Shown: piece after piece, positions 29,210 to 62,394 of the stretch
Layout: every line of letters starts with the position of its first letter
How positions within the stretch are numbered: position 1 is the first letter of the stretch
NCBI GenBank assembly: GCA_050273025.1
Contig: CP158635.1
Coordinates: 7,626,001 to 7,690,000 of the forward strand
Direction: 5' to 3'
DNA from: Cenococcum geophilum
Lineage: Eukaryota
DNA length: 64,000 nt
Notes under the pieces: generated by a model
Database searches by the model: none
What the model saw: only the letters and a program-made list of their open reading frames with translations
What the model was told of the DNA's origin: nothing
Translations under genes and position numbers: made by a program

Positions 29210-32200
29210 TCTAATATATACTAAGTTTGGGTTGAACCTAAGTGTCTAATTAGTTAAAAATTTGTCTGGTTACCTAATATAAGGGACATGCTACCTTATA
29301 TGCTACCCCATTAAATTCCTTACCTCGCGACCTTAAATCCTACCCCTTACTGCTCTTTACCTTCTACCCCAGTTGCTACTCCCTATTTACTGCCTAAATG
29401 CCTTCTAATCGTATATTTTGTACTGCCTGTAAGCAGTATCGCTCTTCTACTAACTTTATAACGAACCGTCATGGAGCTCTATATAAGACCTGTAACTATT
29501 ATAGGGTTAATCCTTTACTTACTCTTTTTTAACTTACTACCTTTCTAACTCTATATAGGAGAAAAGAAATAGATGGTCCCGACAACCTTTAGCGGACCTT
29601 CCACAGCCTATACCCCAAACTACAGCTACTACTACTTCCACTGCTACCTCCGCTGCTACTTCTCCCCTTATACCGCCTGTATCGATCTAGCAACCGCTTA
29701 TACCAATTTAGCCACGACCGCCCGCATTTATCCAGCTATAACCGCCTGCATTTATTTAGCTACAACCCGCCATAGCCCGCCCTATTACGGGCCAGTTAAA
29801 TATCGGGCCTATTACTACAGCCCGCCCTATTGCGGAGCAGCTAAATCGTGGTCTAATTACTACAGTCCGCCATATTACGGAGCAGCTAGATCTCAGTCCT
29901 ATAGACATTATCTATAACTTCTACACAGCCCTACATTGGATTAATAAACGTGTTAGTATATTACCTGCTAGTAATCTACGCTTTAAAGCCTACTATAAGC
30001 ACGGTAATGTAAACCTCCCTCTATTTTAGCTACCGCCAGAATATCTACGCGATCTTTTAGAGTCCTGTAGTACTTCTACTAGGTAGTTTAGGAAGCGGCT
30101 TCGCTTATATAATATAGCATTAGCTTTTACATCCGTAAACTATACTGTTACTAACCGTGGTGTAGCCCAGGGCGGCCTAAATTACTTCTAGATATATAGT
30201 AAGCTTTACTATCTATAGGGCCCGCTAGAGCCTCCTACTAATATTGCTCCGCGGTATGCCTAGCTATACTTTTACAACCCTAGTTATGCCATAGATATCC
30301 GGCTACGGGCCCGTCCTAATACCCAGCTAGATACAACTATTTTATAGTGCCTTACTACTATGCTATCTAAGGTACGGAACCCTTTTATCGCCCTCTATTA
30401 AACCGCAAAGGAACGGCTTCAGGCTTAGCCCGTAATAACCCTATTATAGATTATCTTAAACCCACAGATGTAGCTTATCTTAAAGGCTAGTGCTAATTAG
30501 CGCCATAAAAACCTCCTAATAAGCAATAAGGTGGCCATTATTATACTAGACGAGTATAGTAATACTAGCTTCCGTAATATCGTACTTATAGAGCGTTATA
30601 CGCCTAATAAGCGGCCGCGATACTGCCGTATTAACTTAACGCATGCCATATATATGCCGCTCTACTACGTACTGCTCTTCCCCCGCGGTAATACTAGCTA
30701 GCACTAGGGTCTCTAGCTATATAACTCTAATTAAGCCTACTAGCAAAACCGTTTAATATAGTGGGCGTACTTTCAGTTCTACCTACACGTCCGTATTAAC
30801 TCTAGGTTAGTCCCTTTTACCTACTACTGGCTATTTTAGTAGTATATTATAGATATATAGGCGCTATATAATTAGAATAAGCTTAGCTAAATCCGCTCTA
30901 ACTAAATAACCCTCCACGCGGAGCTATATAATGGCGTTACAGATACTCTTACCCGCTATAATCTGGACCCTACCTTATTAGGCTGTTATATAGTCCTTCC
31001 ATCTAGTTTCCTTAGCGGAGCTCGCTTTATCGGCCAGTGCTATTAGGATTTAATAGCTATTATCCGTAAATACGGCCGTCTAAGTATATTTATTACGTTT
31101 ACTGCTAACCCTAAGTAGGACGAGATTACCCGCGAGCTACTACCTAGCTAGACCGCTATAGATAGGCCCGATCTGGTTATGCGTGTCTTCTATATAAAAC
31201 TTATTTATTTTTTTTACGACCTAAAACGGAAGTAGATCTTCAGCCGGTACTACGGCTCTGTTTAGACTATTAAGTACCAGAAACAGGGCCTGCCCTATTT
31301 ATACCTACTGCTCTTCCTATATCTATATAACCGCGATAGGCTACTAAACCTAGCCGTTATTAACCGTTTTATATCTATAGAGCTTCTATAGCCTAAGGGC
31401 AATCCTACCAGTCATCTTACTAAGATCGTAAAGTTAATAATGGTTTACGGCCCTTGCGGCTCCTAAAATCCGCAAGCTCCTTATATAGTTTCGCCAGGGC
31501 TAGGCCTTCCGCTAACCTACTTAAAGCGGTACCCTAAGCCTTTTAACCCTACTACTGTCATATATAAGGACGGCTATCTAGAATACCGCCATCGCAATAA
31601 TCTGCGGTTGTGGTCTGTCCGCTTACTAGGGGGAGCTATATTTAAAATAAACAACCGCTAGATTATTCTATATAACCCATATCTAACCACAAAGTATTAT
31701 GCCTATATAAATATTAAGGTCTACGCCTCCATAAAGTCCGTTAAGTATATCTATAAGTATATATATAAGGGGAACAACTATACTACTTTACGACTTATAG
31801 ACGGCAATAAGGTAAGCTAGTATTTATAGGGCTGTTATATTGGCCCCTCCGAGGCTATCTAGCGGCTATTTAAGTTTCCCGTTTATAAGGAGTTCCCCCC
31901 TATAATCTAGCTTGCGGTATACCTTCTAGGCGAGCAGCTTATATACTTTTAGCTAGACTAGTCTATAGAGAAGATCTAGCAACGCCTTAAGCTCTCTTAC
32001 TCTACCTTAACGGCCTTCTTTAAGTATAACGCGGAGTATAATAATGGCCGTAACCGCCTATATTAAGACTTCCCTAAGCGCTACGTCTTTTATATAAAGT
32101 AGTGGGAGTGGCGTCTACGCCAGCGAGGCCTTATAATAGGCCGTATATATTACTGCAGCCCCATTACGGGCGAGAGGTTCTACTTACGGCTACTACTAAC

Positions 32201-34328
32201 CTCTATTTCCGGCCCTACCTCCTTTAAGGACCTCCGTACTATTGCTGGTGTAGTCTATTTAACCTTTTAGGCCGCCTACGTGGCTCTAGGGCTACTGGAG
32301 GATAATTATAAGTAGATTAATTACTTTACGGAGGCCGCCATTTTTGCCACTAGCGCCTAGCTACGCTCCTTATTTATAACCGCTTTACTTTACAGCCCTA
32401 TTACGGAGCTAGTTACTTTATAGGACCGCTTTAAACAGTCTATCTATAATAATCTACCTCGCTTTCTAGCCCGCTAACCTAATACTCCTCCTATAGTTAG
32501 CGAGGACAATAACACCTATTTTAATTACAGCCTATACCTTATCTATTAGATACTTACGGATTACTAAAAAACGCTTACGGACTATAGCCTGCCCTAGTTC
32601 TAGCACTAGTAGGGTATTATTGCCGAGGCAAGTAACCCGCTTCTTATAGCGGAGCTACTATAATACGACCCTATAGAGGAAGAATGCTAGTTTACTAAGC
32701 TATGCTAGCAGCTAAATACGGATTAGGCAGCGTGCTTTAATACTATTATTGCCGCTATAGATGCGGATCTGCAAACCGCCTACTTTTTTCTCTAGGGCCC
32801 TATAGGCACTAGTAAAACGTTTCTTTATTACTACCTCTACCACTACTACCGCTTACGTGGTAAGATTGTTCTTTATATAGCTTCTTCTAGTATTACAGCC
32901 CTTTTACTGCCTAGCAGCTGTACCGCCTATTCCCGTTTTTAGATACCTATTAATCTACATAAGGAGTCTACTTATAATGTCTCTAAAAGCTTAAATCTAG
33001 CTAAGCTCCTACGCCGTACCTCTCTGCTTATTTAGGATGAGGTGCCAATATAGCACCACTACTACTTTAAAGCCGTACACTATATACTTACGGATATCCG
33101 TTCTAACGACTCTACCTTTAGCGGACTCCCTACTATCTTAGGCGGCGACTTTGCTTAAATACTGCCTATTATCCCACGGGGAAACCGCGTAGCTATTATA
33201 GGTGCTTGCCTATAGCGGTCGTTCCTCTAGCCTACCTTCTATATCCTCTCCCTACGGTTAAATATACGTATTTGCTAGGGCGAGATAAACCAGTAGTTTG
33301 CCGCTTAGGTGCGAAGCTTATCCTATAATATATCCCTAGCTAGTAGGGTTAGTATTCTACCTAGTATAGCCTAGTTCTAGTCCCAGGAATTCTTTTATAG
33401 GCATATATACCCTCTATATCTACTTACGCGGGCATACTATAACCTAGATGCCTTTCGCGATCGCGCTATCCTAACTATTCGTAATAATACCATTGCTAAG
33501 ATTAATAAGGCTATCCTTACGTAGCTCTACGGCTCCCTAAGCACCTTTTATTCTATAGACTCTGTAAAGTAAAATAGAGCAGAAGAGAGTTATATAGAAC
33601 TACCGCCAGCAGAGCTCCTATAGATATTTAACCCTAATAACCTACCTCTATTAAAGCTTTCCCTAAAGGTAGGCACGCCCGTAATCCTTTTACGGAACCT
33701 TTACCCTAAGGAAGGGCTCTATAACGGCACCCGTATAGTTATTACGCGCCTAGGCCGCCGCTATATTAAAACTCGGGTATTTAGCAGTACCTTTTACAGG
33801 CAGCTACAGCTAATCCCTTATATTAAGCTCACCTCTATAGACGGAGAACTACCGTTTATTATTAGTAGAAGGTAGTTTCTAATCCGGCTATACTTTGCTA
33901 TAACTATAAACAAGTTATAAGGGCAGTCTTTTAACTTTGTTGGTGTTAATTTGCGTATACCAGTCTTTATATATAGGCAGCTATATATTACACTATTAAG
34001 AGTAACGGATATACGCGGGCTTTTGCTATTACTACCGTAGAATAGGGATAGTATAACTGCTAATATTATATATCTAGAGGTATTGCTATACTTTTAGTAT
34101 TTTACTGGCCGTTACGGGCTAAGACGCGAGGGGACGGTATAGTAGCAGTGGCAGCAATAGTAGTAGTGGTAGTAGTAATAGCAGGGCAGTAGTAGGGCAG
34201 ACTGAGTTTAAAAGGCTAAAAGCCCGCCATAGGCGCAAGAAATCCGTTAAATTTACCTAAGGACCAAAATTGCTGGCTATAAGTCAGCAATTTTAAAAAT
34301 TTCCTTAGAAAATTTAACGGATTTCTCG
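29210..34328 (+). mobile_element. Helitron unit 1 (5119 bp)
   Basis: A|TC 5' start with no TSD. Contains the RepHel pseudogene. Terminal hairpin ends ...atttctcg and directly abuts the TC of unit 2. Confidence 0.95.
29398..34097 (+). pseudogene. Helitron Rep/PIF1 helicase (RepHel), unit 1
   Basis: N-terminal CxxC..CxxC and a probable intron at 29506-29558. Rep motifs FITFTANPK* (~31090), KYQKQGLPYLYLLLF (~31272; HUH motif GLPHLH) and YIYKYIYKG (~31746). PIF1 motifs GPIGTSKTF (~32796), DEVPI (~33036), LGGDFA*ILP, FAITINKL*GQS (~33894) and GQLYV-like/LSRV-like (~33975). Confidence 0.95.
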
Positions 34329-37300
34329 TCTAATATATACCAAGTTTGGGTTAAACCTAAGTGTCTAATTGGTTAAAAATTTGTCTGGTTACCTGATATA
34401 AGGGATATACTACCTTACATGCTACCCCATCAAATTCCTTACCTCGCGACCTTAAATCCTACCCCTTACTGCTCTCTACCTTCTACCCCAGTTACTACTC
34501 CCTATTTACTGCCTAAATGCCTTCTAATTGTATATTTTGTACTGCCTATAAGCAGTATTACTCTTCTACTAACTTTGCAACAAACTGTTATAAAGCTCCG
34601 TATAAGACCTATAACTATTATAGGGTTAATCCTTTACTTACTCTTTTTTAACTTACTACCTTTCTAACTCTATATAGGAGAAAAGAAATAGACGGTCCTA
34701 ACAACCTTTAGCGGACCTTTTACAGCCTATACCCTAAACTACAGCCACTACTACTTCCGCTACTACCTCCACTACTACTTCTCCCCTTATACCGCCTGTA
34801 TTAATCTAGTAACCACCTATACCAATCTAGCCGCGACCGCCTGCATTTATCCAGCCGCAACTACCCGCATTTATCTAGCCATAACCCGCTATGGCCCGCC
34901 CTATTATAGGCTAGTTAAATATCGGGCCTATTACTATAGCCCGCCCTATTGCAAAGCAGCTAGATCGTAATCCAATTACTATAATCCGCCATATTACAGA
35001 GCAGCTAGATCTTAGTTCTATAGACGTTATCTATAACTTCTACACAGCCCTACATTAGATTAATAAACGTGTTAGTATATTACCTGCCAGCAATCCACGC
35101 TTTAAAGCCTACTATAAGCACGGTGATATAAACCTCCCTCTATTTTAGCCACCACCAAAATATCTACGCGATCTTTTGGAGTCCCATAGTACTTCTACTA
35201 AACAATTTAAGGAGCGGCTTCGCTTATATAATGCAGTATTAGCTTTTACGTCCGTAAACTATACTGTTACTAACCATAGTATAGCCCGGGGCGGCCCAAA
35301 TTGCTTTTAAATATATGGTAAGCTTTACCATCTATAGGGCCCGCTAGAGCCTCCTACCGATATTACTCCGCGGTATACCTAGCTATACTTTTACAACCCT
35401 AGTTATACCATAGATATTTAGCTACGGGCCCGTCCTAATACCTAGCTAAATACAACCATTTTACGGTGCCTTACTACTATGCTATCTAAGGTACGGAACC
35501 CTTTTATTACCCTCTATTAAACCGTAAAGGAATAGCTTTAGGCTTAACCCGTAACAACCCTGTCGCGGATTATCTTAAACCTATAGATATAGCTTATCTT
35601 AAAAGCTGGTACTAATTAGTACTGTAAGAACCTCTTAATAAGCAACAAGGTGGCCGTTATTATACTAAACAAGTACGGTAATGCTAGCTTCTGCGATATT
35701 ATACTTGCGGAGCATTATACGCCTAATAAGCGGCCGCGATACTACTGTATTAACTTAACGCATGCCGTATATATACCGCTCCACTACATGCTGCTCTTCC
35801 CCCGCGGTAATACTGGCTGGCACTAAGGTCTCCAGCTACGCGACTTTAATTAAGCCCGCTAGCAAGACCGTTTAACGCAATAGGCGTACTTTTAGTTCTA
35901 CCTACACGTCCGTATTAACTTTAGGTTAGTCCCTTTTACTTACTACCGACTATTTTAGCAGTATGTTATAGATGCATAGGCGCTATATAATTAGAATAAG
36001 CTTAGCTAAATCCGCTCTAACTAAACAACCTTTTACATAGAGCTGTATAATGGCGTTGCGGATACTCTTACCCGCCATAATCTGGACCCTACCTTATTAG
36101 GCTACTATATAGTCCTTCTATCTAGTTTTCTTAGCGGAGCTCGCTTTATCGGCTAGTGCTATTAGGATTTAATAGCTATTGTCCGTAAATACGGCCGTTT
36201 AAGTATATTTATTACGTTTACTGCCAACCCTAAATGGGACGAGATTACCCGCGAGCTACTACCTAGCCAGACCGCTATAGATAGGCCCGATCTGGTTATA
36301 CGCGTCTTCCGTATAAAACTTATCTACCTTTTTCACAACCTAAAACAGAAGCAGATCTTCGGCTAGTACCGCGGCTCTATCTAGACCATTAAGTACCAAA
36401 AACAGGGCCTGCCCCATCTATACCTACTGCTCTTCCTATATCCGTATAACCGCGATAGGCTGCTAAACCTAGCCGTTATTAACCGTTTTATATCCGCGGA
36501 GCTTCCGCAGCCTAAGGATAATCCCACTAGTCATTTTACTGAGATTATAAAGTCGATAATAGTTTACGGCCCTTGCGGCTCCTAGAATCCGCGAGCTCCC
36601 TATATAGTTTTGCTAGGGCTAGGCCTTCCGCCAACCTACTTAAAGCGGTACCCTAAGCCTTTTAACCCTACTACTGTTATATATAAGGACAGCTATTCAA
36701 AATACCGCCGTCGCAATAATCTACGGTTATAGTCTGTCCGCTTACTAGGGGGAGCTATATTTAAAATAAACAACCATTAAATTATTCCGTATAACCCGTA
36801 TCTAACTACAAAGTATTATACCTATATAAATGTTAAGGTCTACGCCTCTATAAAGTCCGTTAAGTATATCTATAAGTATATATATAAGGGGAACGACCGC
36901 ACCACTTTACGACTTACGGACGGCGACGAGGTAAGCCAGTATTTATAGGGCCGTTATATTGGCCCCTCTAAGGCTATCTGGCGGCTATTTAAGTTTCCCA
37001 TTTATAAGGAGTTCCCCCCTATAATCTAGCTTACAGTACACCTTCTAGGCGAGCAGCCCGTATACTTTTAGCTAGATTAGTCTATAGAGGAGATCTAGTA
37101 GCGCCTTAAGCTCTCTTACTCTACCTTAACGGCCTTCTTTAAGTATAACGCGGAGTATAATAATGGCCGTAACCGCCTATATCAAGACTTCCCTAAGCGC
37201 TACGTCTTTTATACAAAGCAGCGGGAGTGGCGTCTGCGCCAACGAGGCCTTGCGATAGGCCGTATATATTACTACAGCCCCATTATAGGCGAGAGGTTCT

Positions 37301-39447
37301 ACTTACGGCTACTACTAACCTCCGTTCCCGGCCCTACCTCCTTTAAGGACCTCTATACTATTACTAGTATAATCTATTTAACCTTTTAGGCCGCCTACGT
37401 GGCTCTAGGGCTACTAAAGGATAATTATAAATAAATTAATTACTTTACGGAGGCCGCCGTTTTTGCCACTGGCGCCCAGCTACGCTCCTTATTTATAACC
37501 GCTTTACTTTACAGCCCTATTACGGAGCTAGTTGCTTTATAGGACCGCTTTAAACAGTCTATCTATAATAATCTGCCTTGCTTTCTGGCCCACTAACCTA
37601 ATACTCCTCCTATAGTCGGCGAGGACGATAACACCTATCTTAATTACGGCCTATACCTTATTTATTAGATACTTACGGATCACCAAAAGACGCTTATAGA
37701 TTATGGCCTGCCCCAGTTCCAGTACTAGTGGAGTATTATTACCGAGGTAAGTAACCTACTTCTTATAGCGGAGCTGCTACAATATGACCCTATAGAGGAA
37801 GAACGCCAGTTTACTAAGCTACGCCAGTAGCTAAATACGGATTAGGCAGCGTGCTTTAATACTATCGTTACCGCTATAGATGCGGATCCGTAAACCGCCC
37901 GCTTCTTTCTCTAGGGCCCTATAAGCACTAGTAAAACGTTTCTTTATCGCTACCTCTACTACTACTACCGCTCGCGCGGTAAGATTGTTCTTTACGTAGC
38001 TTCTTTTAGTATTGCGGCCCTTTTACTACCCGGCGGCCATACCGCCCATTCCCGTTTTCGGATACCTATTAATCTATATAAGGAGTCTACTTGCAATATC
38101 TCTAAAAGCTTAAATCTAGCTAAGCTCCTACGCCGTACCTCTCTACTTATTTGGGATGAGGTGCTAATACAGTACCGCTACTGCTTTAAAGCCATATACT
38201 ATATACTTACGGATATTCGTTCTAACGACTCTACCTTTAGCGGACTCCCTACTATCTTAGGCGGTGACTTTACTTAGATACTGCTTATCGTCCCACGGGG
38301 GAACTACGCAGCTATTATAGGTGCTTACCTATAGCGGTCATTCCTCTAGCCTACCTTCTATATCCTTTCCCTATAGTTAAATATACGTGTCCACTAGGGC
38401 GAGATAAACTAGCAGTTTACCACTTAAGTGCGAAGCTTATCCTACAATACATCCCTAGCTAGTAGGGTTGGTATTCTACCTAGTATAGCCCAGTTCCGGT
38501 CCCAGGAATCCTTTTACGGGCATATATACCCTCCGTATCTACTTACGCGGGCACACTATAACCTAAATGCCTTCCGCGATCGCGCTATCCTAACTATTTA
38601 TAATGATACCGTTACTAAGATCAATAAGGCTATCCTTACGTAGCTCTACGGCTTCCTAAGCACCTTTTATTTTATAGACTCTATAGAGTAAAATGAAGTA
38701 GAAGAGAGTTATATGGAACTACCGCTAGCAGAGCTCCTATAGACATTTAACCCCAGTAACCTACCTCCGTTAAAGCTTTCCCTAAAGGTAGGCACGCCCG
38801 TAATCCTTTTATAGAACCTTTACCCTAAGGAAGGGCTCTATAACGGCACCCGTATAGTTATTACGCGCCTAGGCCGCCGCTATATTAAGACTTAGGTACT
38901 TAGCGGTACCTTTTATGGGCAGCTACGGCTAATCCCTTGCATTAAGCTTACCTCTACGGACGGAGAACTACCGTTTATTGTTAGTAGAAGGCAGTTTCTA
39001 ATCCGGCTATGCTTTACTATAACCGTAAATAAGTTATAAGGGCAGTCTTTTAACTTTGTCGGTGTTAATTTATGTATACCAGTCTTTATGTATAGGCAGC
39101 TATATATTACACTATTAAGAGTAACGGATATATATGGGCTTTCGCTATTACTACCGCAGAACAGGGATAGTATAATTACTAATATTATATATCCGGAGGT
39201 ATTGCTGTACTCTTAGTATTTTACTAGCCGTTACAGGCTAAGACGCAAGGGGACGGTATAGCAGCAGTGGTAGTAGTAGTAGTAGTAGCAGTGGTAATAG
39301 TAGGGTAATAGTAGGGCAGACTAAGTTTAGAAGGCCAAAAGCCCGCCATAGGCGTAAGAAATCCGTTAAATTTACCCAAGAACCAAAATTGCTAGCTATA
39401 AGTTAGTAATTTTAAAATTTTCCTTAGAAAATTTAATGGATTTCTTA
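34329..39447 (+). mobile_element. Helitron unit 2 (5119 bp)
   Basis: Collinear with unit 1 at an offset of exactly 5119. Differences are RIP-type. Confidence 0.95.
34517..39216 (+). pseudogene. RepHel, unit 2
   Basis: Same motifs as unit 1, e.g. FTANPKWDEI (~36217) and GLPHL (~36406). Confidence 0.93.
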
Positions 39448-42400
39448 TCTAATATATACTAAGTTTGGGTTAAACCTAAGTATCTAATTGGTTAAAAATT
39501 TGTCTGGTTACCTAATATAAGGGATATACTACCTTACGTGCTACCCTATTAAATTCCTTACCTTACGACCTTAAATCCTACCCCTTACTACTCTCTACCT
39601 TCTACCCCAGTTACTACTCCCTATTTACTACCTAAATGCCTTCCAATTATATATTTTGTACTACCTATAAGCAGTATCACTCTTCTATTAACTTTACAAC
39701 GAACTGTTATAGAGCTCCATATAAGACCTATAACCATTATAAAGTTAATCCTTTATTTACTCTTTTTTAACTTACTACCTTTCTAACTCTATATAGGAGA
39801 AAAGAAATAAACGGTCCCGATAACCTTTAGCGGACCTTTTACAGCCTATACCCTAAACTACAGCCACTACTACTTCCGCTACTACCTCCGCTGCTACTTC
39901 TCCCCTTATACCGCCCGTATTAATCTAGCAACCGCCTATACCAATTCAGCCGCGACCGCCCGCATTTATCTAGCTATAACCGCCCGCATTTATCTAGCCA
40001 CAACCTGCTATAGCCCGCCCTATTACGGGCCAGTTAAATATTAAGCCTATTACTATAGCCCGCCCTATTGTAGAGCAGCTAGATTATAGTCTAATTACTA
40101 TAGTCCGCTATATTACGGAGCAGCTAGATCTCGGTCCTATAGATATTATCTATAACTTCTATATAGCCCTACATTAGATTAATAAATGTATTAGTATATT
40201 ACCTGCCAGCAATTCACGCTTTAAAGCCTACTGTAAGTACAGTAATATAAACCTCCCTCTATTCTAGCTACCGCTAAAATATCTACGCGATCTTTTAGAG
40301 TCCTGTAGTACTTCTACTAGGTAGTTTAGGGAGCGGCTTCGCTTATATAATATAGCATTAGCTTTTATATTCGCAAACTATACCATTACTAACCGTAGTA
40401 TAGCCTAGGGCGGCCCAAATTGCTTCTAGATATATAGTGAGCTTTACTATCTACAGGGCCCACTAGAGCCTCCTACTGATATTGCTCCGCGGTATACCTA
40501 GCTATACTTTTACGACCCTAGTTATACTATAAATGTCCGGCTATAAGCCCGTCCTAATACCTAGCTAGATATAACCATTCTATAGTGCCTTACTACTATA
40601 CTATCTAAGGTACGGAACCCTTTTATCGCCCTCTATTAAACCGTAAAGAAACAGCTTTAGGCTTAGCCCGTAACAACCCCGTCGCGAATTATCTTAAACC
40701 TATAGATACAGCTTATCTTAGAGGCTAGTGCTAATTAGCGCCGTAAGAACCTCCTAATAAGTAATAAGGTGGCCGTTATTATACTAAACAAGTATAGTAA
40801 TACTAGCTTCCGTAATATTGTGCTTATAAAGCGTTATACGCCTAATAAGCGGCCGTAATACTACCGTATTAACTTAACGCATGCCGCATATATGCCGCTT
40901 TACTACGTACTACTCTTCCCCCGCAGTAATACTGGCTAGTACTAGGGTCTCTAGCTACGCGACTCTAATTAAGCCCGCCAATAAGACCGTTTAATATAGT
41001 GGGCGTACTTTTGGTTCTACCTACACGTCCGTATTAACTCTAGGTTAATCCCTTTTACTTACTACTAGCTATTTTAGCAGTATATTGTGGATATATAGGC
41101 GCTATATAATTAAAATAAGCTTAGCTAGATCTGCTCTAACTAAACAACCCTCCGCGTGGAGCTATATAATGGCGTTATAAATACTCTTACCTGCTATAAT
41201 CTGGACCCTACCTTATTAGGCCGCCGTATAGTCCTTCCATCTAGTTTCCTTAGCGAAGCTCGCTTTATCAGCCAGTGCTATTAGGATTTAATAGCTATTA
41301 TCCGTAAATACGGCCGTCTAAGTATATTTATTACGTTTACTGCTAACCCTAAGTAGGACGAGATTACCCATAAGCTATTACCTAGCTAGACCGCTACAGA
41401 CAGGCCCAATCTAGTTATGCGCGTCTTCCGCATAAAACTTATCTACCTTTTTTACGACCTAAAACGGAAGTAGATCTTCGGCCGGTACCGCGGCTCTATC
41501 TAGACTATTAAGTACTAAAAACAGGGCCTGCCCCATCTATACCTGCTGCTCTTTCTGTATCCGTATAACCGCGATAGGCTGCTAGACCTAGCTGTTATCG
41601 ACCGTTTTATATCCGCGGAGCTTCTATAGCCTAAGAACGATCCTACTAGTTATCTTACTAAGATTATAAAGTCAATAATAGTTCACGGCCCTTATAGCTC
41701 CTAGAATCCGCGAGCTCCCTATATAGTTTTACTAGGGCTAGGCCTTCCACCAACCTATTTAAAGCGGTACCCTAAGCCTTTTAACCTTACTACTGTCGTA
41801 TATAAGGACGGCTATCTAGAATACCGCCGTTATAATAATTTACGGTTATGGTCTATCCGCTTACTAGGGGGAGCTATATTTAAAATAAATAACCGCTAGA
41901 TTATTCCGTACAACCTGTATCTAACCGTAAAGTATTATACCTATATAAATGTTAAGGTCTGCGCCTTCGTAAAGTCCGTTAAGTATATCTATAAGTATAT
42001 ATATAAGGGGAACAACCGCACCACTTTACGACTTATAGACGGCGATAAGGTAAGCTAGTATTTACAGGGCCGTTATATTGGCCCCTCCGAGGCTATCTAG
42101 CGGCTATTTAAGTTTCCCATTTATAAGAAGTTCCCCCCTATAATCTAGCTTACGGTACACCTTCTAGGTAAATAGCCTGTATACTTTTAGCTAGACTAGT
42201 CTATAGAGGAGATCCAGTAGCGCCTTAAGCTCTCTTACTCTACCTTAACGGCCTTCTTTAAGTATAACGCGGAGCATAATAATGGCTGTAACCGCCTATA
42301 TTAAGACTTCCCTAAGCGCTATATCTTTTATATAAAGCAGCGGGAGTAACGTCTACGCTAGTAAGGCCTTATAATAGGCCGTATATATTACTACAGCCCC

Positions 42401-49652: not shown

Positions 49653-49827
49653 TAAGGTATATTATTTTTTTAAATAACTACTTCTATAACTGCCCTATAG
49701 GGTTAGTAAACTATCTATAAATGCCCCACAGGGCCTAGTAAACCCCCCTTTCCTCTACCTTCTACCCCCTCCCCTACTCCTTATACTCCTTAACTATATC
49801 CGCCAAATAGCAGAGCAGCCCTATAAA

Positions 49828-51498: not shown

Positions 51499-54400
51499 AT
51501 GCCTTCCGATCGTATATTTTGCAACGCCTATAAGCAGTATCGCTCTTTTACTAACTTTATAACGAACCATTATAGAGCTCTGTATAAGACCTGTAACTAT
51601 TATAGGGTTAATTCTTTATTTACTCTTTTTACCTACTACCTTTTTAACTCTATATAGGATAAAAGAAAGGGACAGTCCCAACAATAACCTTTAGCGGACC
51701 TTCCGCAGCCCGCCGCTACTACTTCCGCCGCTGCTTCTCCCTCTGCTTCCCGCCTTCTTATACCGCCCGTATCGATTTAGCCGCGACCGCGACCACCCAT
51801 ATTAATCCAGCCGCAACCGCAACCACCCGTATCAATCCAGCCGCGACCGTAACCACCCGTATCAATCCAGCCGCGACCGCAACCACCTGTATTAATTCAG
51901 CCGCGACCTACTACGGTCCGCCCTATCGCGGAGCAGCTAGATTGTGGTCCTATTACTACCGTCCGCCATATTACGGAGCAGCTAGATCTTAGTTCTATGG
52001 ACGTTATCTATAACTTCTACGCGGCCCTACATTGGATTAATAAACGTATTAGTACATCACCCGCCAGCAATCTATAGTTTAAAGCCTACTGTAAGTATAG
52101 CGATATAAACCTCCCTCTATTCCAGCCTCCGCCAGAATATTTACGCGACCTTTTAGAGTCCTATAGTACTTCTACTAGGCAGTTTAGGGAGCGGCTCCGC
52201 GCATATAATGCAGCATTAGCTTTTACGTCCGTAAACTATACCGTTACTAACTATAGTATAGCCTAGGGCAGCCTAAATTACTTCTAGATATATAGTAAGC
52301 TTTACCATCTACAGGGCCCGCTAGAGCATCCTACTAATATTACTCTACGGTATGCGCAGCTATACTTTTACGACCCCAGTTATACTATAGATATTTAGCT
52401 ACGGGCCCGTCCTAATACTTAGCTAGATATAACTATTCTATAGTACCTTACTGCTATACTATCTAAGATACAGAACCCTTTTATCACCCTTTATTAAACC
52501 GTAAAGGAACGGCTTTAGGCTTAGCCCGTAATAACCCTATTGCAAATTATCTTAAACCCACAGATATAGCTTATCTTAGAGGCTAGTGCTAATTAGCGCC
52601 GTAAAAACCTCCTAATAAGTAATAAGGTGGCCGTTATTATACCGGACGAGTATGGTGATGCTAGCTTTTACAATATCGTGCTTGCGGAGCGTGGCATACC
52701 TAATAAACCCCCGCGATACTGCCGTATTAACTCAGCACACGCCGCATATATGCCGCTCTACTACGTGCTACTCTTCCCTCACGGTAATACTAGCTGGCAC
52801 TAGGGTCTCTAGCTACGCAACTCTAATTAAACCCGCTAGTGAGACTATTTAACGTAGTAGGCGTACTTTCGGTTCTACCTACACGTCCATATTAACTTTA
52901 AGTTAGTCCCTTTTACCTACTACCGGCTATTTTAGTAGTATATTATAGATATATAGGCGCTATATAATTAGAATAAGCTTAACTAGATCTGCTTTAACCA
53001 AATAACCCTCTATATAGAGCTATATAATGGCGTTATAAATGCTCTTACCCGCCATAATCTGGACCCTACATTATTAGGCTACCGCGTAGTCCTTCTATCC
53101 AGTTTCCTTAGCGGAGCTCGCTTTATTAGGCAGTGCTATTAGGATTTAATAGCTATTATTTATAAATACAGCCGTTTAAGTATATTTCTTATGTTTATTA
53201 CTAACCCTAGGTAAAACAAGATTACCCATAAGCTACTACCTAGGTAAACCGCTATAGATAGGCCCAATCTAGTTATGCGCGTCTTCCGTATAAAACTTAT
53301 CTACCTTATTTATAACCTAAAACGGAAGTAAATCTTCGGCCAGTACCGCGGCTCCGTTTAGATCATTAAGTACTAGAAATAGGGCCTACCCTATATACAC
53401 CTACTGCTCTTCCTATATCCGCATAACCGCGATAGGCTGCTAAACCTAGCTATTATTAACTATTTTATATCCGCGGAGCTTCTGTAGCCGGAGGGTAATC
53501 CTACTAGTCGTTTTACTAAGATTATAAAGTTAATAATGGTTTACAGCCCTTGCGGCTCCTAAAATCCGCGAGCTCCCTATATAGTTTTGCTAAGGCTAGG
53601 CCTTCTACTAACCTACTTAAAGCAGTACCCTAAGCCTTTTAACCCTACTACTGTTATATATAAGGACGGCTATCCAGAATACCGCCGTCGTAATAATTAG
53701 CGGATGTAGTCTGTTTGCTTACTAGGGCCTTTTAAAGCTACGTTTAAAATAAATAACCGCTAGATTATTCTATATAGTCCGTATCTAACCGTAAAGTACT
53801 ATACCTATATAAATGTTAAGATCTGCGCCTCTATAAAGTCCGTTAAGTATATCTATAAGTATATATATAAGGGGAGCGACCGTACCACTTTACGACTTAT
53901 AGATGGCGATAAGGTAAGCTAGTATTTGTAAGGCCGTTATATTAGCCCTTTTAAGGCTATCTAGCAGCTATTTAAGTTTCCCGTTTATAAGGAGTTCCCC
54001 CCTATAATTTAGCTTGCAGTGCACCTTTTAGGTAAATAGCCCGTATACTTTTAGCTGGACTAAACTATAGAGGAAATCTAATAGCGCCTTAAGCTCTCCT
54101 ACTCTACACTAATGGCCTTCTTTAAGTATAACGCGGAGTATAATAATGCCCGTAACCGCCTATATTAAGACTTCCCTAAGCAGTACGTCTTTTATATAAA
54201 GTAATGGGAGTAGTGTCTACGCTAGCGAGGCCTTATAATAGGCCGTATATATTACTACAGTCCTATTATAGGCGAGAGGTTTTACTTACGGCTGCTGCTA
54301 ACCTCTATTCCCGGCCCTACCTCCTTTAAAAACCTCCGTACTATTGCTGGTATAGTCTATCTAACCTTTTAGGCCGCCTGCGTGGCTTTAGGGCTACTAA

Positions 54401-56196
54401 AGGATAATTATAAGTAAATTAATTACTTTACAGAGGCCGCCGTTTTTGCTATTAGCGCCTAACTACGCTTCTTATTTATAACCGCTTTAGTTTACGGCCC
54501 TATTACAGAGCTAGTTGCTTTATAGGACTGCTTTAAATAGTCTATTTATAATAATCTACCTCGCTTTTTAACCCAGCAGCCTAATGCTCCTATAGTTAGT
54601 GAGGATAATAACGCCTATTTTAATTACGGCCTATACCTTATCCATTAGATACTTATAAATCACCAAAAAATACTTACGGACTATAGCCTACCCCAGTTTC
54701 AGCACTAGTGGGCCGTTATTGCCGAGGGAAATAACCCGCTTCTTGTAGCTGAGCTATAGCAATATAACCCTATAGAGGAAGAACGCTAGTTTACTAAGCT
54801 ACGCTAGCAGCTAAATGCCAATTAGGCGGCGTGCTTTAATACTATTATTACCGCTATAGATACGGATCCGTAGATAGCCCGCTTCTTCCTCTAGGGCCTT
54901 ATAGGTACTGGTAAAACGTTTCTCTATCGCTGCCTCTGCTACTACTACCGCTTATATAGTAAGATTGTTCTTTATATAGCTTCTTCTAGCATTACGGCCC
55001 TTTTACTGCCTAGTAGCCGTACTACCTACTTCCGTTTTTGGATACCTCTTAATCTATATAAAGAGTCTACTTATAATATCTCCAAAAGCTTAAATCTAGC
55101 TAAGCTTCTACGCCGTACTTCTCTGCTTATTTAGGATAAGGTGTTAATATAGCACCGCTACTACTATAAAGCTATACACCGTATACTTACGGACGTCCGT
55201 TCTAATAACTCTACCTTTAGCGGACTCCCTACTATCTTAGGTGGTGACTTTACTTAAATACTGCCTGTTATCCCATGGGGGAACCGCGTAGCTATTATAG
55301 GTGCCTACCTACAGCGGTCGTTTCTCTAGCCTACCTTCCGTATACTGTCCCTACGGTTAAATATACGTGTCCGCTAGGGCGAGATAAATTAGTGGTTTAC
55401 AGCTTAGGTATAAAGCTTATCCTATAATCTAGCCCTAGCTAGTAGTATTAGTATCCTACCTGGTATAGCCCTATTATAGTCCTAGGAACCCTTTTACGGG
55501 CATATATACCCTCCGCAACTGCTTGCTCAGGCATATACTAACCCTAATACCTTCCGCGATCGCGCTATCCTAACCATTTATAACGATACTGTGGCTAAGA
55601 TTAACGACGCTATTCTTCCGCGGCTCTACGGCTTCCCAAGCACCTTTTATTCTATAGACTCTATAGAGCAAAATAGGGAAGAAGAAAATTATATAGAACT
55701 ACCACCGGCGGAGCTTCTGCAGATATTTAACTATAGTAGCCTACCTCCGTTAAAGCTTTCCCTAAAAGTAGGCGCGCCCGTAATCCTTTTACGGAACCTT
55801 TACCCTAATAAAGGGCTCTATAACGGCACCCGTATAGTTATTACGCGCGTAGGCCGCTACTGTATTAAAACTTAGATATTTAGCGGCAGCTTTTATAACT
55901 AGCTACGGCTAATCCTTTATATTAAACTTACCTCTACGGAAGAAGAACTGCCGTTTATTATTAGTAGAAGGCAGTTTCTAATCCGGCTATACTTTGCTAT
56001 AACCGTAAATAAGTTATAGGGGCAGTCTTTTAACTTTGTTGGCGTTAATTTACGTATACCAGTCTTTACCCATAGGTAGCTATATATTGCGCTGTTAAGA
56101 GTAATAGATATAGCTAGGCTTTCGCTATTACTGCCATAGGACGGGGATGCTATAATAACTAATATTATATATCCGGAGGTATTGCTATAGTCTTAG
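51499..56196 (+). pseudogene. RepHel, unit 5
   Basis: Same Rep and PIF1 motifs. The longest surviving open stretch is the track ORF 55591-55875 (LSLKVGAPVILLRNL..GLYNGTR). Confidence 0.92.
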
Positions 56197-57395
56197 TATA
56201 TTACTAGCCATTACGGGCTAAGATATCGGGGGACGGTATAGCAGTAGTGGCAGTAATGGCAGTAAGGCAGTAAGGCAGTAGGGTAGTAATAGGACAGCAC
56301 TTGGTTTCGGGCTAATATTATATCTAGAGGTATTGCTTTTATAATAAGGTATATTATTTTATTATATAACTACTTCTATAACTGCCCTATAGGGCCAGTA
56401 AAACCTCTATAAGTGCCCTATAGGGTCTAGTAAACACTCCCTTTTTCCTCCCTTCTCCCCCCTCCCCCTCCTCTACCCCCCTCCTCTACCCCTCCTCTAC
56501 CTCCCCTCCCCTACTCCTTATCCTTCTCCCCCTTCTACTGCTTAACTATATCCGCCAAATAGCGGAGCAGCCCCGTAACCTACTGGCGCCGTACGGGGCG
56601 GGGACGGCCGCGGGTAGGCGGGGCCTCCTCTTTATTATCGTCGTCGTCGTCATTATCGTTATCGTCGTTATTGTCGGCGGTAGTAATGGCAGCGGCGGGA
56701 GGGACCAAGGCGTGGGAGGACGCGCGGCCGCGGCGGACCGGCAGGGTGGTGGCGGTGGCTACGGCAGGGGCAGACGCTATTATCTCTATTCTATCTATCG
56801 CAGTCACATAAGGGGATATTTTAATTTTTGTATAATTGGGAGGCGCAGGGCTATAAGGTCGCTCTAGGGCTAGTTCTTAGCAGTTTTGCTAGTTCCTAGC
56901 ACTTAAATCTGCTAAGGATTTGCCCTAAAGCGGCCAGATATCCCTAACCGTAAGCCTATAGCTGCAAGACTATCTAACTATAGTGGTCGCATTAAGGCTA
57001 GCTCTTAGTGGTTTTGCTAGTTCCTAGCACCTACTAAAGAATTGCCTTAAAGCGCTATCTATATATAATGTATACTAAGTGTAAGGGATGGCGGGTGGAG
57101 AAAGCGAATTAGCCACGTAGTGACTACGTTTAATATTCGCGAATATTGCGGAAGGTCTTAGCATTGTGCGTTGCTAAGGTAGATGCTGCTAAGTAATATA
57201 TAGACGCTAGTATCTATCTATCGCAGTCACGTAAGGGGATATTTTAATTTTTGTATAATTAGGAGGTGTAGGGCTATAAGGTCGCTCTAGGGCTAGTTCT
57301 TAGCAGTTTTACTAGTTCCTAGCACTTAAATCTGCTAAGGATTTGCCTTAAAGCGGCCAGATGTCCCTAAGTAAAGCTCCTACGCCTAATAAGAC

Positions 57396-57546
57396 ATTAC
57401 TGCATTCTGCCATATTCTACTAAATTCTGCCACCTTATTGCATTCTGCCAAATTTTACCACATTATCGCATTCTGCCAAATTCTGCTATATTATTGCATT
57501 CTGCCAAGTTCTGCTATATTATCGTATTCTGCTATATTCTGCCAAC
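57396..57546. repeat. attctgcca-based short tandem repeats in the Ngaro 3' non-coding region
   Basis: About five ~28-bp units attattgcattctgccaaattctgccac. Confidence 0.8.
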
Positions 57547-57679
57547 CCTAAGTTATAAGCCAACTAATCAGGATTTTCTATGCCCGGCATAGAAAATCGC
57601 TATTAGCTCGCTTACTACTAGCGCCTTAGCGGCCCTCTTAACATCTTAACCTATTATATAGTAATCCTTACGCTAAGAG

Positions 57680-58750
57680 CGGTATACTACGCTAAAAGTA
57701 AGAGTTAAGGTAACGGAGGTTAGTAGTCTTAGTTCTAATATATAGGCGAAAGGCTTCTAATAACCACCAACTTAGCTGCTAAATTTACTGGTATAAACAC
57801 CCTAAATCTTTAGCGAACTAGGCAGCGCCCTAGCGGAAGGAGTAGTTTAAGTAACTACTTAGGTTAATCCCAGCAGCTACTAAATGGGAGGAAAGGATCT
57901 TATAAACCCCTAGAAAGGTAAAGGGTTTACTATTAAGACTAAATAAGAGAGAGTTAAGGGGTTAAGGGTCCCTATTAAACAGCTTTATTATAATAGCAAC
58001 TAGGCATAATAGGCCGCCTACCGCCGTGATGGCGATGTTAACGCCCTAGTATTACTTATCAGCTTTACTCTATTTAAGGTAGAATATCATCCTATTAGGC
58101 GTAAAGGTAATATCGTATCAAGTGGCCTTTTTCGCTAGAAAGGTTATTTAGTTTTTAAGCTCCGCCGTAGTATATATAATTTTGCCTATCTATAGAAATC
58201 TAGCAAATATAAGGGTAAATACGGTATTAGTGTTAACATCTAGTAGCAATAGGCCGTGTATTACTACCTAGGCTAGAATGTCCCTAGTAATAGATTGCTT
58301 ATCCTTTTTTACTAAGGGAGAGATAGCGGCTGCTCCGGCGAGTAATTGGTGTACTATAGGATCCTTAAATGCTATAATTAAGATACCGTAATCTATATAG
58401 CGCGAGCGAATTACGGAGACGTAGGCTTATAAGGTTTCAGCCTTAAGCCTACCTATCTATAGCTAGGAGGTACTAAACGCGCGGCAGGTAATCTATTCGC
58501 CTAGTTTACGCGGCTTAGCTAGGTAGGGGGAGACTCCTTTAAGTGCGCAGTATAACTCCTAGCTATTAACTACTAAGGAATAGTTTCTATAGGTTGCTAG
58601 CGTAAGGCCGTTCTAAAAAAGGAGTGCGTAAAGGTTAAATAGCGCGTTAATATTATCTTTAAAGTTTATAAGCGGTTATAAGTAGTCCATTAGGTTTACG
58701 GCACCTATTAAAAACTTATTAGCTTTAGTAGTAATAAATTAAGGGCCTAG
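57680..58750 (-). pseudogene. tyrosine recombinase of the Ngaro element
   Basis: LK*SKADK*Y*GV (~58040-58078), NYSFR*GAA*FA (~57812-57848; HSFRRGAA) and QLSWWLLEAFRLYI (~57737-57778; LGRWxSxAFxxY). Confidence 0.88.
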
Positions 58751-58759
58751 TATAGGCAG

Positions 58760-60400
58760 AACTAATAGATAGCCGCGGCCTAGAATTAAGATAGTGTATT
58801 AGCTAAGCTATTTAAATTACCTAGGATCTACTTTACGGATATTGTGATATCGTAAGCTATAGCAGCTAGCATAATCTTATGGAGCAATTCATTTGCTACG
58901 CTACAGATAACGGTCTTCTTAATACCCTAGTAAACCACTATGCTATTGGTGTAAATAGATAGCGCGCTATACTGCTAGTTAGTAGACCATAGATTAAATA
59001 CGTAAGTAATAGTATATATCTCTTTCGGATTAATATAGTCTACTTATTAACTAGGCTTAGGCAATATACTAAACGCCTAAGATTAAGGGAGGTTGGCTGT
59101 ATACTACTACTAGTTATCCTTATATTTAAGTTTCTTAAAAAAGTAAAAGCCGCTAAACCTAAACTGGGTAAAGGTGTTAGTAAAGAGATAAATATGGGTA
59201 TGCTTAACGTTATTAAAGAACAATACCCTATTACTTATAGTAAGTAGGTTAAGCTAGATACATAAGTTACTTTATAACTTAGTACTAAATCGCCTAGGTT
59301 TATACTTATTTACTAAAGTCTCCGGCTAAGTAGTAATAAAGATCTAAAGGGATCTAGAGTAAGATTAACCAAGTTTAATTACGTGGGCGTACTATATAAG
59401 GTAGCCCGTAAGCTACTAGGCTTAAAAGAACGATAATAAGCTATATTAAAGTGTGGTAGTGACTTTCTTAATAGCACGTAATTATTTCTGTGGTAATAAT
59501 TACGTTTACATTTATACGGTGTCAATAGTATATCCTAGAACTTTAATAATAGTTCCTGTTATATTTTTAGAGCTATTTTAAGGGATACCTAGGGAGTTAG
59601 TAATAGAGATATAAGTCTAAGTAACAGCCGCTAAGTTATTTAGGTTAGTAAAAATAAAGATAAAGTTATTTAGGTAGTGTTTTACCTTATAAGGCAGTTA
59701 TAAATAGAGTATTTAGTATAGGCCTTCTATAAAGAGGTTAAATATAAGCGGCGCAGTTTAAAGACTAAAGGATAGGCAGTATTTTTAGTAGGTAACACCT
59801 TCCTAGGAGAAGCCTATTAATGTTCTTACCCTATAAGATAAGGGGACTATATGGAACGCGTCTTTAATATCTCTTTTAAGTAGCAGATATCTATAACCTA
59901 CAGAAATAATGTAGGCTTAAATAGCGGTAACTGTAGTATATACTAGTGCTCTATATTCTTCTAGGATTACGTTATTAACTAAAAATGCTAGTAGAAAGGA
60001 GAGATCGTAAATTTAGCGGTATCCTCTATTTGATTTTAGCACTAGGCTAAGAGGTAAGACTATAATAGGCCCTATCGCGATTCTAATATATCCTTTTTTA
60101 AGGTCTAATATTATCTTTTTAGAGATAAGGTCGGCGTTATCCTAAAAGGAGTTATGGTTCCTACAAGATCTTAAGGTAGAGATAGACTTGGCTCCTATCT
60201 CGCAGCTATAGGTTAGGATGCCTACTAAAGTGGCTAGTAGATTGCCCGGGTAGTTAAATAGAAGGGAGTGCTATACTAAGATCCTTAGGGGTAATAAAGA
60301 GTAGTAGAGAGCCTTTACCTCTATAAAGGTAGAGAATAATAGTAACGTATTAGGCCTAGGTCCTAGGCATATAATTAAAGTTAGTGTTATTATTAGGCTA
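58760..60400 (-). pseudogene. DIRS-type reverse transcriptase/RNase H
   Basis: LKRDIKDAFHIVPL (~59840-59880), CLSFSL*TAPLIFNLF (~59730-59780) and HYLNNFI (~59660-59680; YLDD). Confidence 0.9.
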
Positions 60401-60409
60401 GACCCTACT

Positions 60410-61317
60410 TTATAAGGTTCGCCTTGCTGTTCCTAGGCGCAAGCTTTAGATAATATAGTATAATCTTTACTATACTTTAAGCACTTATGCGGGTATTTAC
60501 AAGCTATATTATTACAGCCTCTGCTATTAAACCTACGGCAGGTATTAGAGGTATAGGAGGTATCCAACCTAAGTCTCTTTAAGGCGGCGAAGCCGATAGC
60601 ACTAGATATTATAAGGTATGGCGCTATATACTAGGCTAGCATTTGCCAATTAGCGGGCTCTAGTTGGCCATTAGTTATTATAAAGGTATAATAGTCGAGT
60701 GCTAAGTTAAGTATATAACCTACTTAGATATACTAGGTTGATAAGGTACAAATTATATTTATTTAAAGAAGTATACTAGTGATAAGGTCCAGCGGGTATA
60801 TACAAAGGGTGCTAGTAATAACTACGTAGTTAGTAAAACCTTTAAACCAGACGCCTTTATCTATAAATAGCTTCCTATCTACCTTTACCTTCCTTATAAC
60901 TAGAGTACCATTCTTAATCTATATCTCGTCGGCGATCTCAATTTAAGCAGTATAGACTTAAAAATAGGCGAGGTTTACTAGATTGAAGGTACCCTTAAAA
61001 ATATCTAGGTAATCCCTTTTTATAACGCCAGGAAGGCGGAGTTTAAGCGACTTTACGCTAAAAGGGAGAGGCTTACCAAGGACATTAGCTATAGTAGCTG
61101 TTATAATGGCCTATAAGGCCGAAGCGGCCAAGCCTAACTATAATTAAGCCATTTAAGCTAGGTGGTATTTATGCTAATAAGCCTCCTCCGCTAGGCGGGC
61201 TTTGCGCTCTTCCTTATACTTCTAAATCTCCCTTTTATCTCAGGCTTGTTCCCTTTACTCTTTAATAATTTCGCGCTCTTCTACGGTAGCGGCGCGTATA
61301 TTAGCCTTAGACGGCAT
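60410..61317 (-). pseudogene. gag-like ORF of the Ngaro element
   Basis: C-terminal CRRFNSRGCNNIACKYPHKC (~60480-60540), a Cys/His motif typical of DIRS/Ngaro gag. ATG at 61317. Confidence 0.7.
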
Positions 61318-62394
61318 TATAGAACTAGTGGAGGAGGGTGTAACGGTTGTAGATAATAGTGTAGTTAAGGTAGGTCGTCTAGGTGGGTTTACTTATTGGG
61401 ATTATATATATGTATAAGTCTCCCAGTTAGTTATAAGCGGTAATAGTGTTATAAAATAATTCTTAAACGAATAGATAATAAATGTATAATAAATATTAAT
61501 AAGTTTAGCGATATTGAAAGCGAATTAGCCACGTAGTGACTGCGTTTAATATTCGCGAATATTGCGGGAGGTCTCAGTATTGTGTGTTGCTGAGGTAGAT
61601 GCTGCCAAGCAATATATAGACGCTAGTATAGTTATACTTTTTACCGTTTATATTGCTAACTTATAGGCCTAAAAGGAGCACCGCACCCCTTTGCTGCTAT
61701 AATGGCAGTTAGTATAGCTACTACACAGCTAGCCCGCGACTAATATATACTCCATAAATAGGCCACCGCCCCGCGTATATAACGTATAAGCTTATAGGGC
61801 TACTATACCCCAGCTTTATACTAGGGCTACCTCTATATTTAGGGCCCTGGCCTTAAGGCGGACCCCCTAGTAAACCCTAGGAGCTTTACCTAGGCTAAAA
61901 GCCTACTATAAAAACACGCCCTAAACGCGCGGTAGGGGACGCAGCGCCCGCATTATAGCTATATTAGTAGTGGTAGCTTTAGCGGCAGTAGTAAGCGCGG
62001 CAGGTAACGGATTCTAGGGTAGGAGGGCGGCGGGCTAATTAATGGCCATAAAGCCGGCCGCGGGGGGAGCGATAGAAGCGGCAGCGGTAGTGGTAGCGGT
62101 AGTGGTAGGGGCGGGGAGGGCCCTAGCGGCAGCTATAGCTACAGCAGCTATTTATATATTAGTATTTTCTTAAATTCTTAAATTCTTTTATAGTACTAAT
62201 ACTTACTAGCACGCTTATCTGCTGGGACCGAAGTCCTATATATAGGCACCCCAGCCTATAACAGCGGCGGCATAGACGGCGGCACTAAGAGGCTGCGGCC
62301 TGGCGCGGACATGGCGGCGGCAGCGGCGGTAGTAGTGATGGTGGTAGTAGTGGTGGTAGTAGTAGTGGCGGCAGCGGTGGTAGTAGTAGCAGTA

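Follow-up and report, generated by a model that had tools for sequence, protein, structure and literature searches.

A head-to-tail chain of five Helitron units from three lineages in RIP-mutated DNA of Cenococcum geophilum

We describe a chain of Helitrons at positions 29210-62394 of a 64,000-nt stretch of the Cenococcum geophilum genome (assembly GCA_050273025.1, contig CP158635.1, positions 7,626,001-7,690,000 of the forward strand; this whole stretch is called the window below, and positions are counted from its first nucleotide). Five Rep-helicase (RepHel) units, U1 to U5, drawn from three lineages, follow one another in it on one strand, end to start. The chain itself is genuine. On balance we lean toward the view that it was joined by the Rep-helicase chemistry of the elements themselves, that the joints between different lineages arose by end-directed integration, and that all the units were inactivated together later by repeat-induced point mutation (RIP).

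Layout of the chain and its joints

All four joints between the units, at 34328/9, 39447/8, 44566/7, and 51315/6, turned out to be free of any spacer when the sequence was read directly, as an earlier sequence-only reading of this stretch had claimed. The consensus joint is CTCG/TC, where the slash marks the boundary between units. U1 meets U2 as ...GGATTTCTCG/TCTAATATATAC; U3 meets U4 as ...GGATTTCTCG/TCTTATATATAC, the left side ending TTTCTCG; and U4 meets U5 as ...TTATTTCTCG/TCTTCTATATAC. The joint of U2 with U3 is ...GGATTTCTTA/TCTAATATATAC, with a left side ending TTTCTTA, and thus reads CTTA/TC. The mutation that had been noticed at this joint is real: CTTA results from CTCG when each base of the CpG undergoes a transition, which fits RIP. 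Two of the joints are heterologous, namely, that of U3 and U4 (44557-44578, plus strand), where an alpha-type 3' end is followed by a U4-type 5' end, and that of U4 and U5 (51306-51327, plus strand), where a beta-type 3' end is followed by a U5-type 5' end. Random insertion cannot produce exact joints of this kind, since the window alone contains 5567 AT dinucleotides; some specific process has to lie behind them.

When the window was compared with itself, the chain appeared as three ~90%-identical units, each 5119 bp long, then a unit of 6749 bp, and then a fifth unit running to 62394. U1 (29210-34328), U2 (34329-39447), and U3 (39448-44566), on the plus strand like the other units, belong to one lineage and are each 5119 bp long, which bears out the equal length proposed for them. 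U1 extends from 5' TC to 3' CTCG, and U2 is the same as U1 and U3 except for transitions, its 3' end being RIP-mutated to CTTA. U4 (44567-51315; 6749 bp) represents a second lineage, with a diverged 5' end, an extra 3' segment, and a beta-type 3' hairpin end. The third lineage is that of U5, whose left part (51316-56790) consists of a 5' end like that of U1 to U3, the RepHel core, and the start of the extra 3' segment.

U5 is split at 56790/1 by a 4.8-kb insertion (56791-61628) and resumes in a right part (61629-62394) that matches U4 50047-50850. It tracks U4 as far as 62394, inside a (GGT/AGT)n run, and from 62395 to the end of the window, at 64000, the sequence is unrelated and lies outside the Helitron chain. 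Since U5 stops inside this microsatellite, and the counterpart of the last ~465 bp of U4, including the 3' hairpin and terminus, is not in the window, position 62394 is a break and not the end of the array. The description of all five units as full-length therefore does not hold for U5 as seen in the window. The insertion contains direct repeats (56790-56947 equal to 57213-57370, and 57100-57213 equal to 61516-61629; 100% identity after purine/pyrimidine [RY] recoding) and a minus-strand match to RVT_1 (E 7.9e-06), which is below the Pfam cut-off and is the sole Pfam result across 56700-64000; neither TG..CA ends nor a target-site duplication were seen at 56791-61628. The sequence after the break (62395-64000) gave no Pfam match, and direct repeats of 63 to 93 nt occur in it at 63515-63904.

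The Pfam families Helitron_like_N, PIF1, and Pif1_2B were matched by all five units, each in a single plus-strand frame in which stops were written as X, with E values of 2e-23 to 1.5e-37 for Helitron_like_N and 7e-35 to 1.8e-44 for PIF1; the Rep-helicase fusion was judged by these domain profile matches and not by the HUH and tyrosine residues. The frame of U2 starting at 34330 matched the Helraiser transposase (7lcc_A) with E 7.7e-194 over aa 272-1599. About 100 stops interrupt the RepHel frame of each unit (102 in U1), no open reading frame of at least 120 aa exists anywhere in the 64-kb window, and all five units are dead, none being intact.

The units are autonomous-type, canonical Helraiser-like Helitrons. 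Their canonical traits are the Helraiser-like protein, the TC at the 5' end, the hairpin at the 3' end, and the A of the host to the left, and they have no asymmetric terminal inverted repeat (TIR). The left flank of the array (29200-29209, plus strand) reads CTCCTAGCTA, with A as the last host base before U1, and lies inside a RIP-degraded retroelement; RVT_1 was matched (Pfam, E 1.4e-16) on the minus strand of 25091-29209, which adjoins U1. The 5' start is TCT in all five units, and TC begins 16 of the 17 related 5' ends found in metagenome contigs (see below), the other one beginning with TT. The canonical 3' CTRR is not found: three of the four 3' ends in the window are CTCG and the fourth is the RIP product CTTA, and the seven metagenome 3' ends are CTCG (five), CTTG (one), and CTTA (one), so that the CT is kept and the next base in this family is C rather than a purine. 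An asymmetric TIR, which is a trait of Helitron2/Helentron, was not found above the shuffled null (the reverse complement of the first 40 nt against the last 300 nt gave best local scores of 7.0 to 8.5; shuffles gave means of 7.0 to 7.5 and maxima of 11 to 11.5).

U1 ends in a predicted compound hairpin (34234-34328, plus strand), in whose outer stem the final CTCG pairs with an upstream CGAG, and DNA folding predicts its equivalents at 39353-39447 (U2), 44472-44566 (U3), and 51221-51315 (U4), all on the plus strand. The fold z scores of these ~95-nt hairpins are -9.2, -5.9, -10.6, and -9.5 for U1 to U4, respectively, and none of 200 shuffles was as stable. In an alignment of 11 ends (four from the window and seven from the metagenome), 11 of the 37 predicted pairs show compensatory double changes, some of which are of transversion type (A-U to U-A, C-G to A-U) and therefore cannot be products of RIP. 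The predicted hairpin extends to the last nucleotide, including the cleavage nucleotide, instead of ending 10 to 12 nt before it. Every unit has trinucleotide-type arrays, (GGT/AGT)n and GGGCAGTAGTAG, just upstream of its 3' hairpin, and array-type repeats were located at 34136-34195, 50772-50912, 51043-51173, and 62304-62394. Both the deletion that sets U1-U3 apart from the longer form of U4/U5 and the break in U5 fall in such arrays, which may be fragile or recombination-prone.

RIP, the three lineages, and the position of the switch

Compared pairwise, U1, U2, and U3 differ at 500 to 534 positions over 5119 bp, all of them transitions except one or two, with zero indels. The share of mutated sites was 44.8% for CpA (497/1110), 20.9% for CpG (408/1953), 4.5% for CpT (104/2301), and 2.9% for CpC (59/2070), and the RIP indices of the units were 1.9 to 2.0 for TpA/ApT and 0.38 to 0.47 for (CpA+TpG)/(ApC+GpT). 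This mutation pattern is that of ascomycete RIP. Because RIP changes only transitions, transversions and indels still reveal shared templates, which makes the locus a clean natural record, and for the same reason RY recoding and transversion-only comparison are valid means of seeing through RIP; both were used here. After RY recoding, U1 to U3 are 99.94 to 99.97% identical over the full 5119 bp, without gaps, and were therefore identical when made. They come from one template, either as a rolling-circle trimer or by three hits from a master copy.

The comparison of the 4.18-kb core gave a different picture for the other two units. While U1 to U3 have 0 to 1 transversions and no gaps among themselves, they are separated from U4 by 73 to 74 transversions and 18 gap columns and from U5 by 57 to 58 transversions and 9 gap columns, and U4 and U5 are separated from each other by 67 transversions and 15 gap columns; the transversion divergence of U4 and U5 from U1-U3 and from each other is 1.4 to 1.75%. 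Together with structural differences, this confirms the three subfamilies that the sequence-only reading had distinguished. The first ~95 nt of U4 are homologous to the other 5' ends but diverged from them, and an extra ~240 bp comes next. U4 and U5 have in common an extra 3' segment of ~1.2 kb (three aligned pieces, U4 49619-50850), which U1 to U3 lack, and the last ~200 nt of U4 are 88% RY-identical to the ends of U1 to U3. A six-frame Pfam search of the extra 3' segment of U4 (49500-51316) gave no family, and "cargo" is an unproven label for it.

Among the 119 informative columns of the core, U4 alone stands out in 52 and U5 alone in 27, U1-U3 are split from U4 and U5 in 36, three are three-state, and one is private to U3. 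These lineage-diagnostic columns are scattered through the core without any block switch, and the change of subfamily inside RepHel that had been raised as a possibility is not there; the switches lie at the termini. At the heterologous joints, diagnostic transversions are present from nt 4-5 downstream and from nt 9-10 upstream, and the lineage switch is thus within ~14 nt (-10 to +5) of each of these joints.

The dose of RIP was found to be about the same along the chain. The mutated share of CpA was 0.617 in U1, 0.505 in U2, 0.564 in U3, 0.627 in U4, and 0.574 in U5, with no left-to-right gradient, and of 1024 columns, 471, 420, 442, 479, and 495, respectively, were mutated; U4 and U5 stand slightly higher, by about as much as their own lineage-specific transitions would probably add. 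No age gradient from U1 to U5 was found in the RIP load, and the flat dose therefore lends no support to the right-most unit being the oldest. As for the claim that only this unit carries secondary insertions, one insertion and one break, both in U5, are all that speaks for it. The simplest reading of the RIP dose is that the entire chain was in place before the first RIP strike, having been either assembled within one RIP-free interval or integrated as a block.

The whole window is RIP-degraded repeat DNA (for 1-62394, TpA/ApT, 1.67 to 1.9; (CpA+TpG)/(ApC+GpT), 0.43 to 0.51), and its last 1.6 kb appears less affected (1.42 and 0.86, respectively). Within it, a 2.46-kb direct repeat (12537-15001 and 25090-27554; gapless, with 90% nucleotide and 99.8% RY identity) is a RIP-hit duplicate, whose right copy sits in the minus-strand RVT_1 stretch directly left of the Helitron chain.

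Related copies and the origin of the joints

Metagenome contigs were scanned with a RIP-tolerant 27-nt pattern for the 5' end, which cannot match U4-type 5' ends; short-motif scans and RY-coded terminal probes gave mostly noise, and stricter regular expressions were used. The scan returned 28 loci, of which 11 (L003, L004, L006, L007, L011, L012, L013, L014, L019, L024, and L028) were dropped as family members, as their sequence past the pattern was not a family 5' end and had no BLAST match to the array; L010 was retained on its 45-nt 5' end, though it had no BLAST match either. Seven of the dropped loci (L004, L006, L007, L011, L013, L019, and L028) are chance matches with one common AT-rich flank, ...AATTAATAATA, and to judge from it are copies of another repeat in a different, very AT-rich genome. 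The 17 true 5' ends are 75 to 87% identical to the window units and RIP-like, and none is the window locus.

Five of these 17 5' ends (in L001, L002, L009, L020, and L026) are part of an exact, spacer-free ...TTCTCG/TC joint, with CTTA in the case of L020. Copies elsewhere are thus not almost all solitary; had they been so, this would have counted against the sequence-only reading by its own criterion. The two sides of the L001 joint belong to one lineage (726 columns with 0 transversions, the 6 non-identical columns all being gaps). The sides of L002 have 1.9 kb in common at 94.8% RY identity; its upstream unit, for which no intact 5' end was found in the contig, holds RepHel in its 3' part only, while no RepHel shows in 6 kb of the downstream unit. 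No stretch of at least 150 nt is common to the two sides of the joint in L009 or L020, and the L026 contig is too short for its joint to be classified as identical or mixed. The five joints represent four combinations of 3' and 5' end types, and at least three are not identical pairs; mixed joints therefore recur in this Helitron family.

The remaining 12 5' ends are solo, with flanks ending in A (seven) or CT (five), and a T comes after each of the two solo 3' ends, which belong to L027. The flanks in A, the A to the left of U1, and the T after the 3' ends would fit insertion between host A and T; the five CT flanks would not. Members of one sub-lineage, L001, L017, and L023, are only 0.02 to 0.07% apart in transversions over 4.2 kb, and two of them are solo, with different flanks; together with the 5' part of L021 they look like a recent burst that was followed by RIP. 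Ahead of several solo 5' ends stand short tandem repeats of the element's own first bases, (TCT)n or TCTTATA (L016 at ~382, L018 at ~5995, and L027 at 1611-1639), and three of the five CT flanks read TCT/TCT. Such repeats could have arisen by stuttering, if the 5' end was nicked and rejoined again and again, or simply by the growth of a microsatellite. A near miss was seen in L027 (3969-4108, plus strand), where a Helitron 3' end is followed by T, a 138-nt spacer that contains a degenerate 5'-end-like motif, and the next 5' end on the same strand.

We then asked whether the chain could be an artefact in which unrelated copies were mis-joined at a conserved terminal sequence. Parts of 43500-52500 are present in 20 sequencing runs, of which four from one sample hold 56 to 61% of the sampled words; runs labeled as a second organism hold 18 to 24%. 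Four runs, all in the form of Logan contigs, were compared with 32400-52399. The family is a high-copy one, with a summed contig depth of 306 to 2112 per bin in one run (not a copy number) against ~14 to 25 for zero-difference unitigs, and no joint is bridged among the pieces listed from the four runs. The listed pieces are 101 to 238 nt long, except for one contig of 3716 nt that touches only 51325-51448; the lack of bridging among them is neutral for the assembly. The many apparent joints in these runs have short sides (20 to 39 nt) and resemble other copies of the family. An artefact is nevertheless very improbable: solo 3' and 5' ends share no sequence, so that no joint could be assembled unless reads bearing one existed; the RIP pattern differs from unit to unit, at about one position in 10; U2, U3, U4, and U5 are matched by zero-difference, single-depth unitigs of the source sample; and independent contigs show the same kind of joint. 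Still harder to uphold, and in our view largely refuted, is an originally homogeneous concatemer whose units later diverged where they stood or were altered piecemeal by unequal crossing-over or gene conversion. Tandem repeats do exchange, and the number of U1-U3 copies could partly reflect unequal exchange, but the core shows no block switch. Moreover, the nearest relative of U5 is the solo copy L008, at 0.90% transversions against 1.36 to 1.61% to the other array units, and L008 carries 16 of the 24 private transversions of U5, and other contigs likewise contain the 5' insert of U4 type and the 3' end of beta type. The lineages of the array are therefore dispersed sub-families, and divergence in place is excluded as their source.

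The three other alternatives accept the joints and differ in how these were made. Rolling-circle read-through, as had been proposed, accounts for U1-U3, which were identical at birth and are exactly joined as in a one-template concatemer, yet not for U3/U4 and U4/U5, given the identity in transversions on the one hand and the three lineages on the other. For the heterologous joints, the sequence-only reading had every new element enter at the left A/TC boundary, so that the array grew leftward only, from U5 as the oldest unit to U1 as the youngest. We find this rather doubtful. The canonical A/T target is recreated at the left boundary from the A of the host plus the T of the resident copy, the flank of the array and seven of the 12 solo 5' flanks end in A, the insertion and the break are both in U5, and the same model is in print for maize (PMC2267711) and Metarhizium (PMC5148889). 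However, insertion at CTCG/T or into an existing joint would yield an identical product, the supposedly youngest U1 is as mutated as the others (CpA dose 0.617), and two events in one of five units are weak evidence of age. Somewhat less probable again, though the main rival to end-directed integration as a mechanism, are mixed multimers formed before integration. In these, an excised strand would be linked through its 3' OH to the tyrosine-bound 5' end of a different element, or replication would pass from one circle to another, and a single integration of the whole chain, or of blocks of it, would follow. They would agree with the about equal RIP dose of all units and with the exactness of all joints; concatemers are expected by-products of rolling-circle replication (PMC5876387), and the U1-U3 trimer and the L001 pair (0 transversions in 726 nt) resemble such products. 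On the other hand, trans joining of two different Helitron strands is not reported in the parts of the literature drawn on here, and the near miss with its 138-nt spacer in L027, a single case, fits local targeting better. We give little weight to a composite copied as a block from elsewhere after RepHel had read through the terminator into an adjacent element. Such end bypass is an accepted route of gene capture by Helitrons (PMC5148889), and joints are common in the family, but the origin of the first adjacency is merely displaced, and neither heterologous combination of the window was among the five metagenome joints, which were collected with a pattern blind to U4-type 5' ends.

End-directed integration, the reading that we favor for the heterologous joints, would proceed as follows. 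RepHel would nick at the A/TC left end, at the CTCG/T right end, and at the CTCG/TC joint of the circle, and strand transfer of an incoming element would take place preferentially at the terminus of a resident copy or at a joint in the chromosome that looks like the junction of the circle. Transfer at a resident end would place the incoming element flush against the resident one, leaving a spacer-free joint. We infer this enzymatic route. Self-targeting at Helitron ends is partly supported, the data fixing neither the end that was targeted nor the order of arrival. Several points weigh against end-directed integration. To our knowledge, end-targeting has never been shown by experiment for any Helitron. 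The similar RIP dose fits the single integration of a ready-made multimer equally well. A short-read assembler, if one produced the metagenome contigs, could change paths within the conserved joint sequence of ~50 nt, which would inflate the count of heterologous joints. Five of the 12 solo 5' flanks end in CT rather than A, which blurs the target rule, and the ~100- to 240-nt unitigs listed from the four runs leave the joints unbridged.

Comparison with known arrays and meaning for the family

One of the closest published cases is the maize r1 region, where two different Helitrons lie next to each other with an exact CTAG/TC joint and are read as consecutive insertions (Du et al. 2008, BMC Genomics, PMC2267711). 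The likeness lies in an exact head-to-tail joint between elements that differ in sequence and cargo. The differences are that there are two units in maize but five here, from three lineages and including an identical trimer; that the 3' end is CTAG in maize and CTCG here; that the host here is a fungus, with every unit RIP-mutated; and that presence/absence data across lines belong to the maize case only. Three tandem Helitron copies are known from Metarhizium acridum and are described along with the Fusarium FoHeli elements (Chellapan et al. 2016, Mobile DNA, PMC5148889), and in F. solani some Helitron copies are said to bear marks of RIP (PMC5148889). The same two alternatives for adjacency are printed for the maize pair (PMC2267711) and the Metarhizium triple (PMC5148889). 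The chain described here resembles the latter as a fungal Helitron tandem. The elements of that paper are, however, of the Helitron2 type, with asymmetric TIRs, whereas here no such repeat rose above the shuffled null and the match to Helraiser is full-length, and a heterologous chain is not described in the parts of that paper drawn on here.

The bacterial IS91-family and ISCR elements use an HUH/Y2 rolling-circle transposase, and failure of termination gives rise to head-to-tail multimers; unlike the units described here, these elements lack a fused helicase. The Helraiser transposase makes and precisely cleaves a plus-strand junction of the right and left terminal sequences (RTS-LTS), and circles with a precise junction act as donors (PMC5876387). 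Perfect head-to-tail Helitron junctions in a bat genome are cited in both PMC2267711 and PMC5876387. The RepHel of the chain is collinear with Helraiser (E 7.7e-194), and its joint of a 3' end with TC has the structure of the RTS-LTS junction of the circle. HeliBat tandem arrays were reportedly described from Myotis lucifugus by Pritham and Feschotte in 2007. The bat arrays are read as tandems of one element, whereas two of the four joints of the present chain link different lineages.

In a limited literature search, no publication describing a Helitron chain of several lineages in a fungus with RIP was found. The idea of end joining is already in print as a hypothesis, and the locus is a well-marked new example of a known phenomenon. 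New here are a chain of five units, in which an identical trimer stands beside members of two more lineages, a background of RIP against which the identity of templates can be read, and a first rough frequency for one fungal family, with five of 17 5' ends in exact joints. The choice of target by Helitrons and the origin of head-to-tail arrays are still argued from a handful of cases.

It is conceivable, although we hold it only tentatively and at somewhat less than even chances, that elements of this family home to ends of their own kind, preferring as integration site the terminus of a resident copy or a chromosomal CTCG/TC joint that resembles the junction of the circle. If so, about one-third of its 5' ends would lie in exact joints, including joints between sub-lineages, and chains would accumulate in repeat DNA that is already dead, a "safe harbor" habit of self-targeting. 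We know of no experiment that has shown such a habit for a eukaryotic rolling-circle transposon. For annotators, caution is in order, as chains of this kind can be mistaken for a single long element or for gene capture. End-to-end joining is apparently frequent enough in this Helitron family to be studied, and it supports testing whether RepHel uses resident termini.

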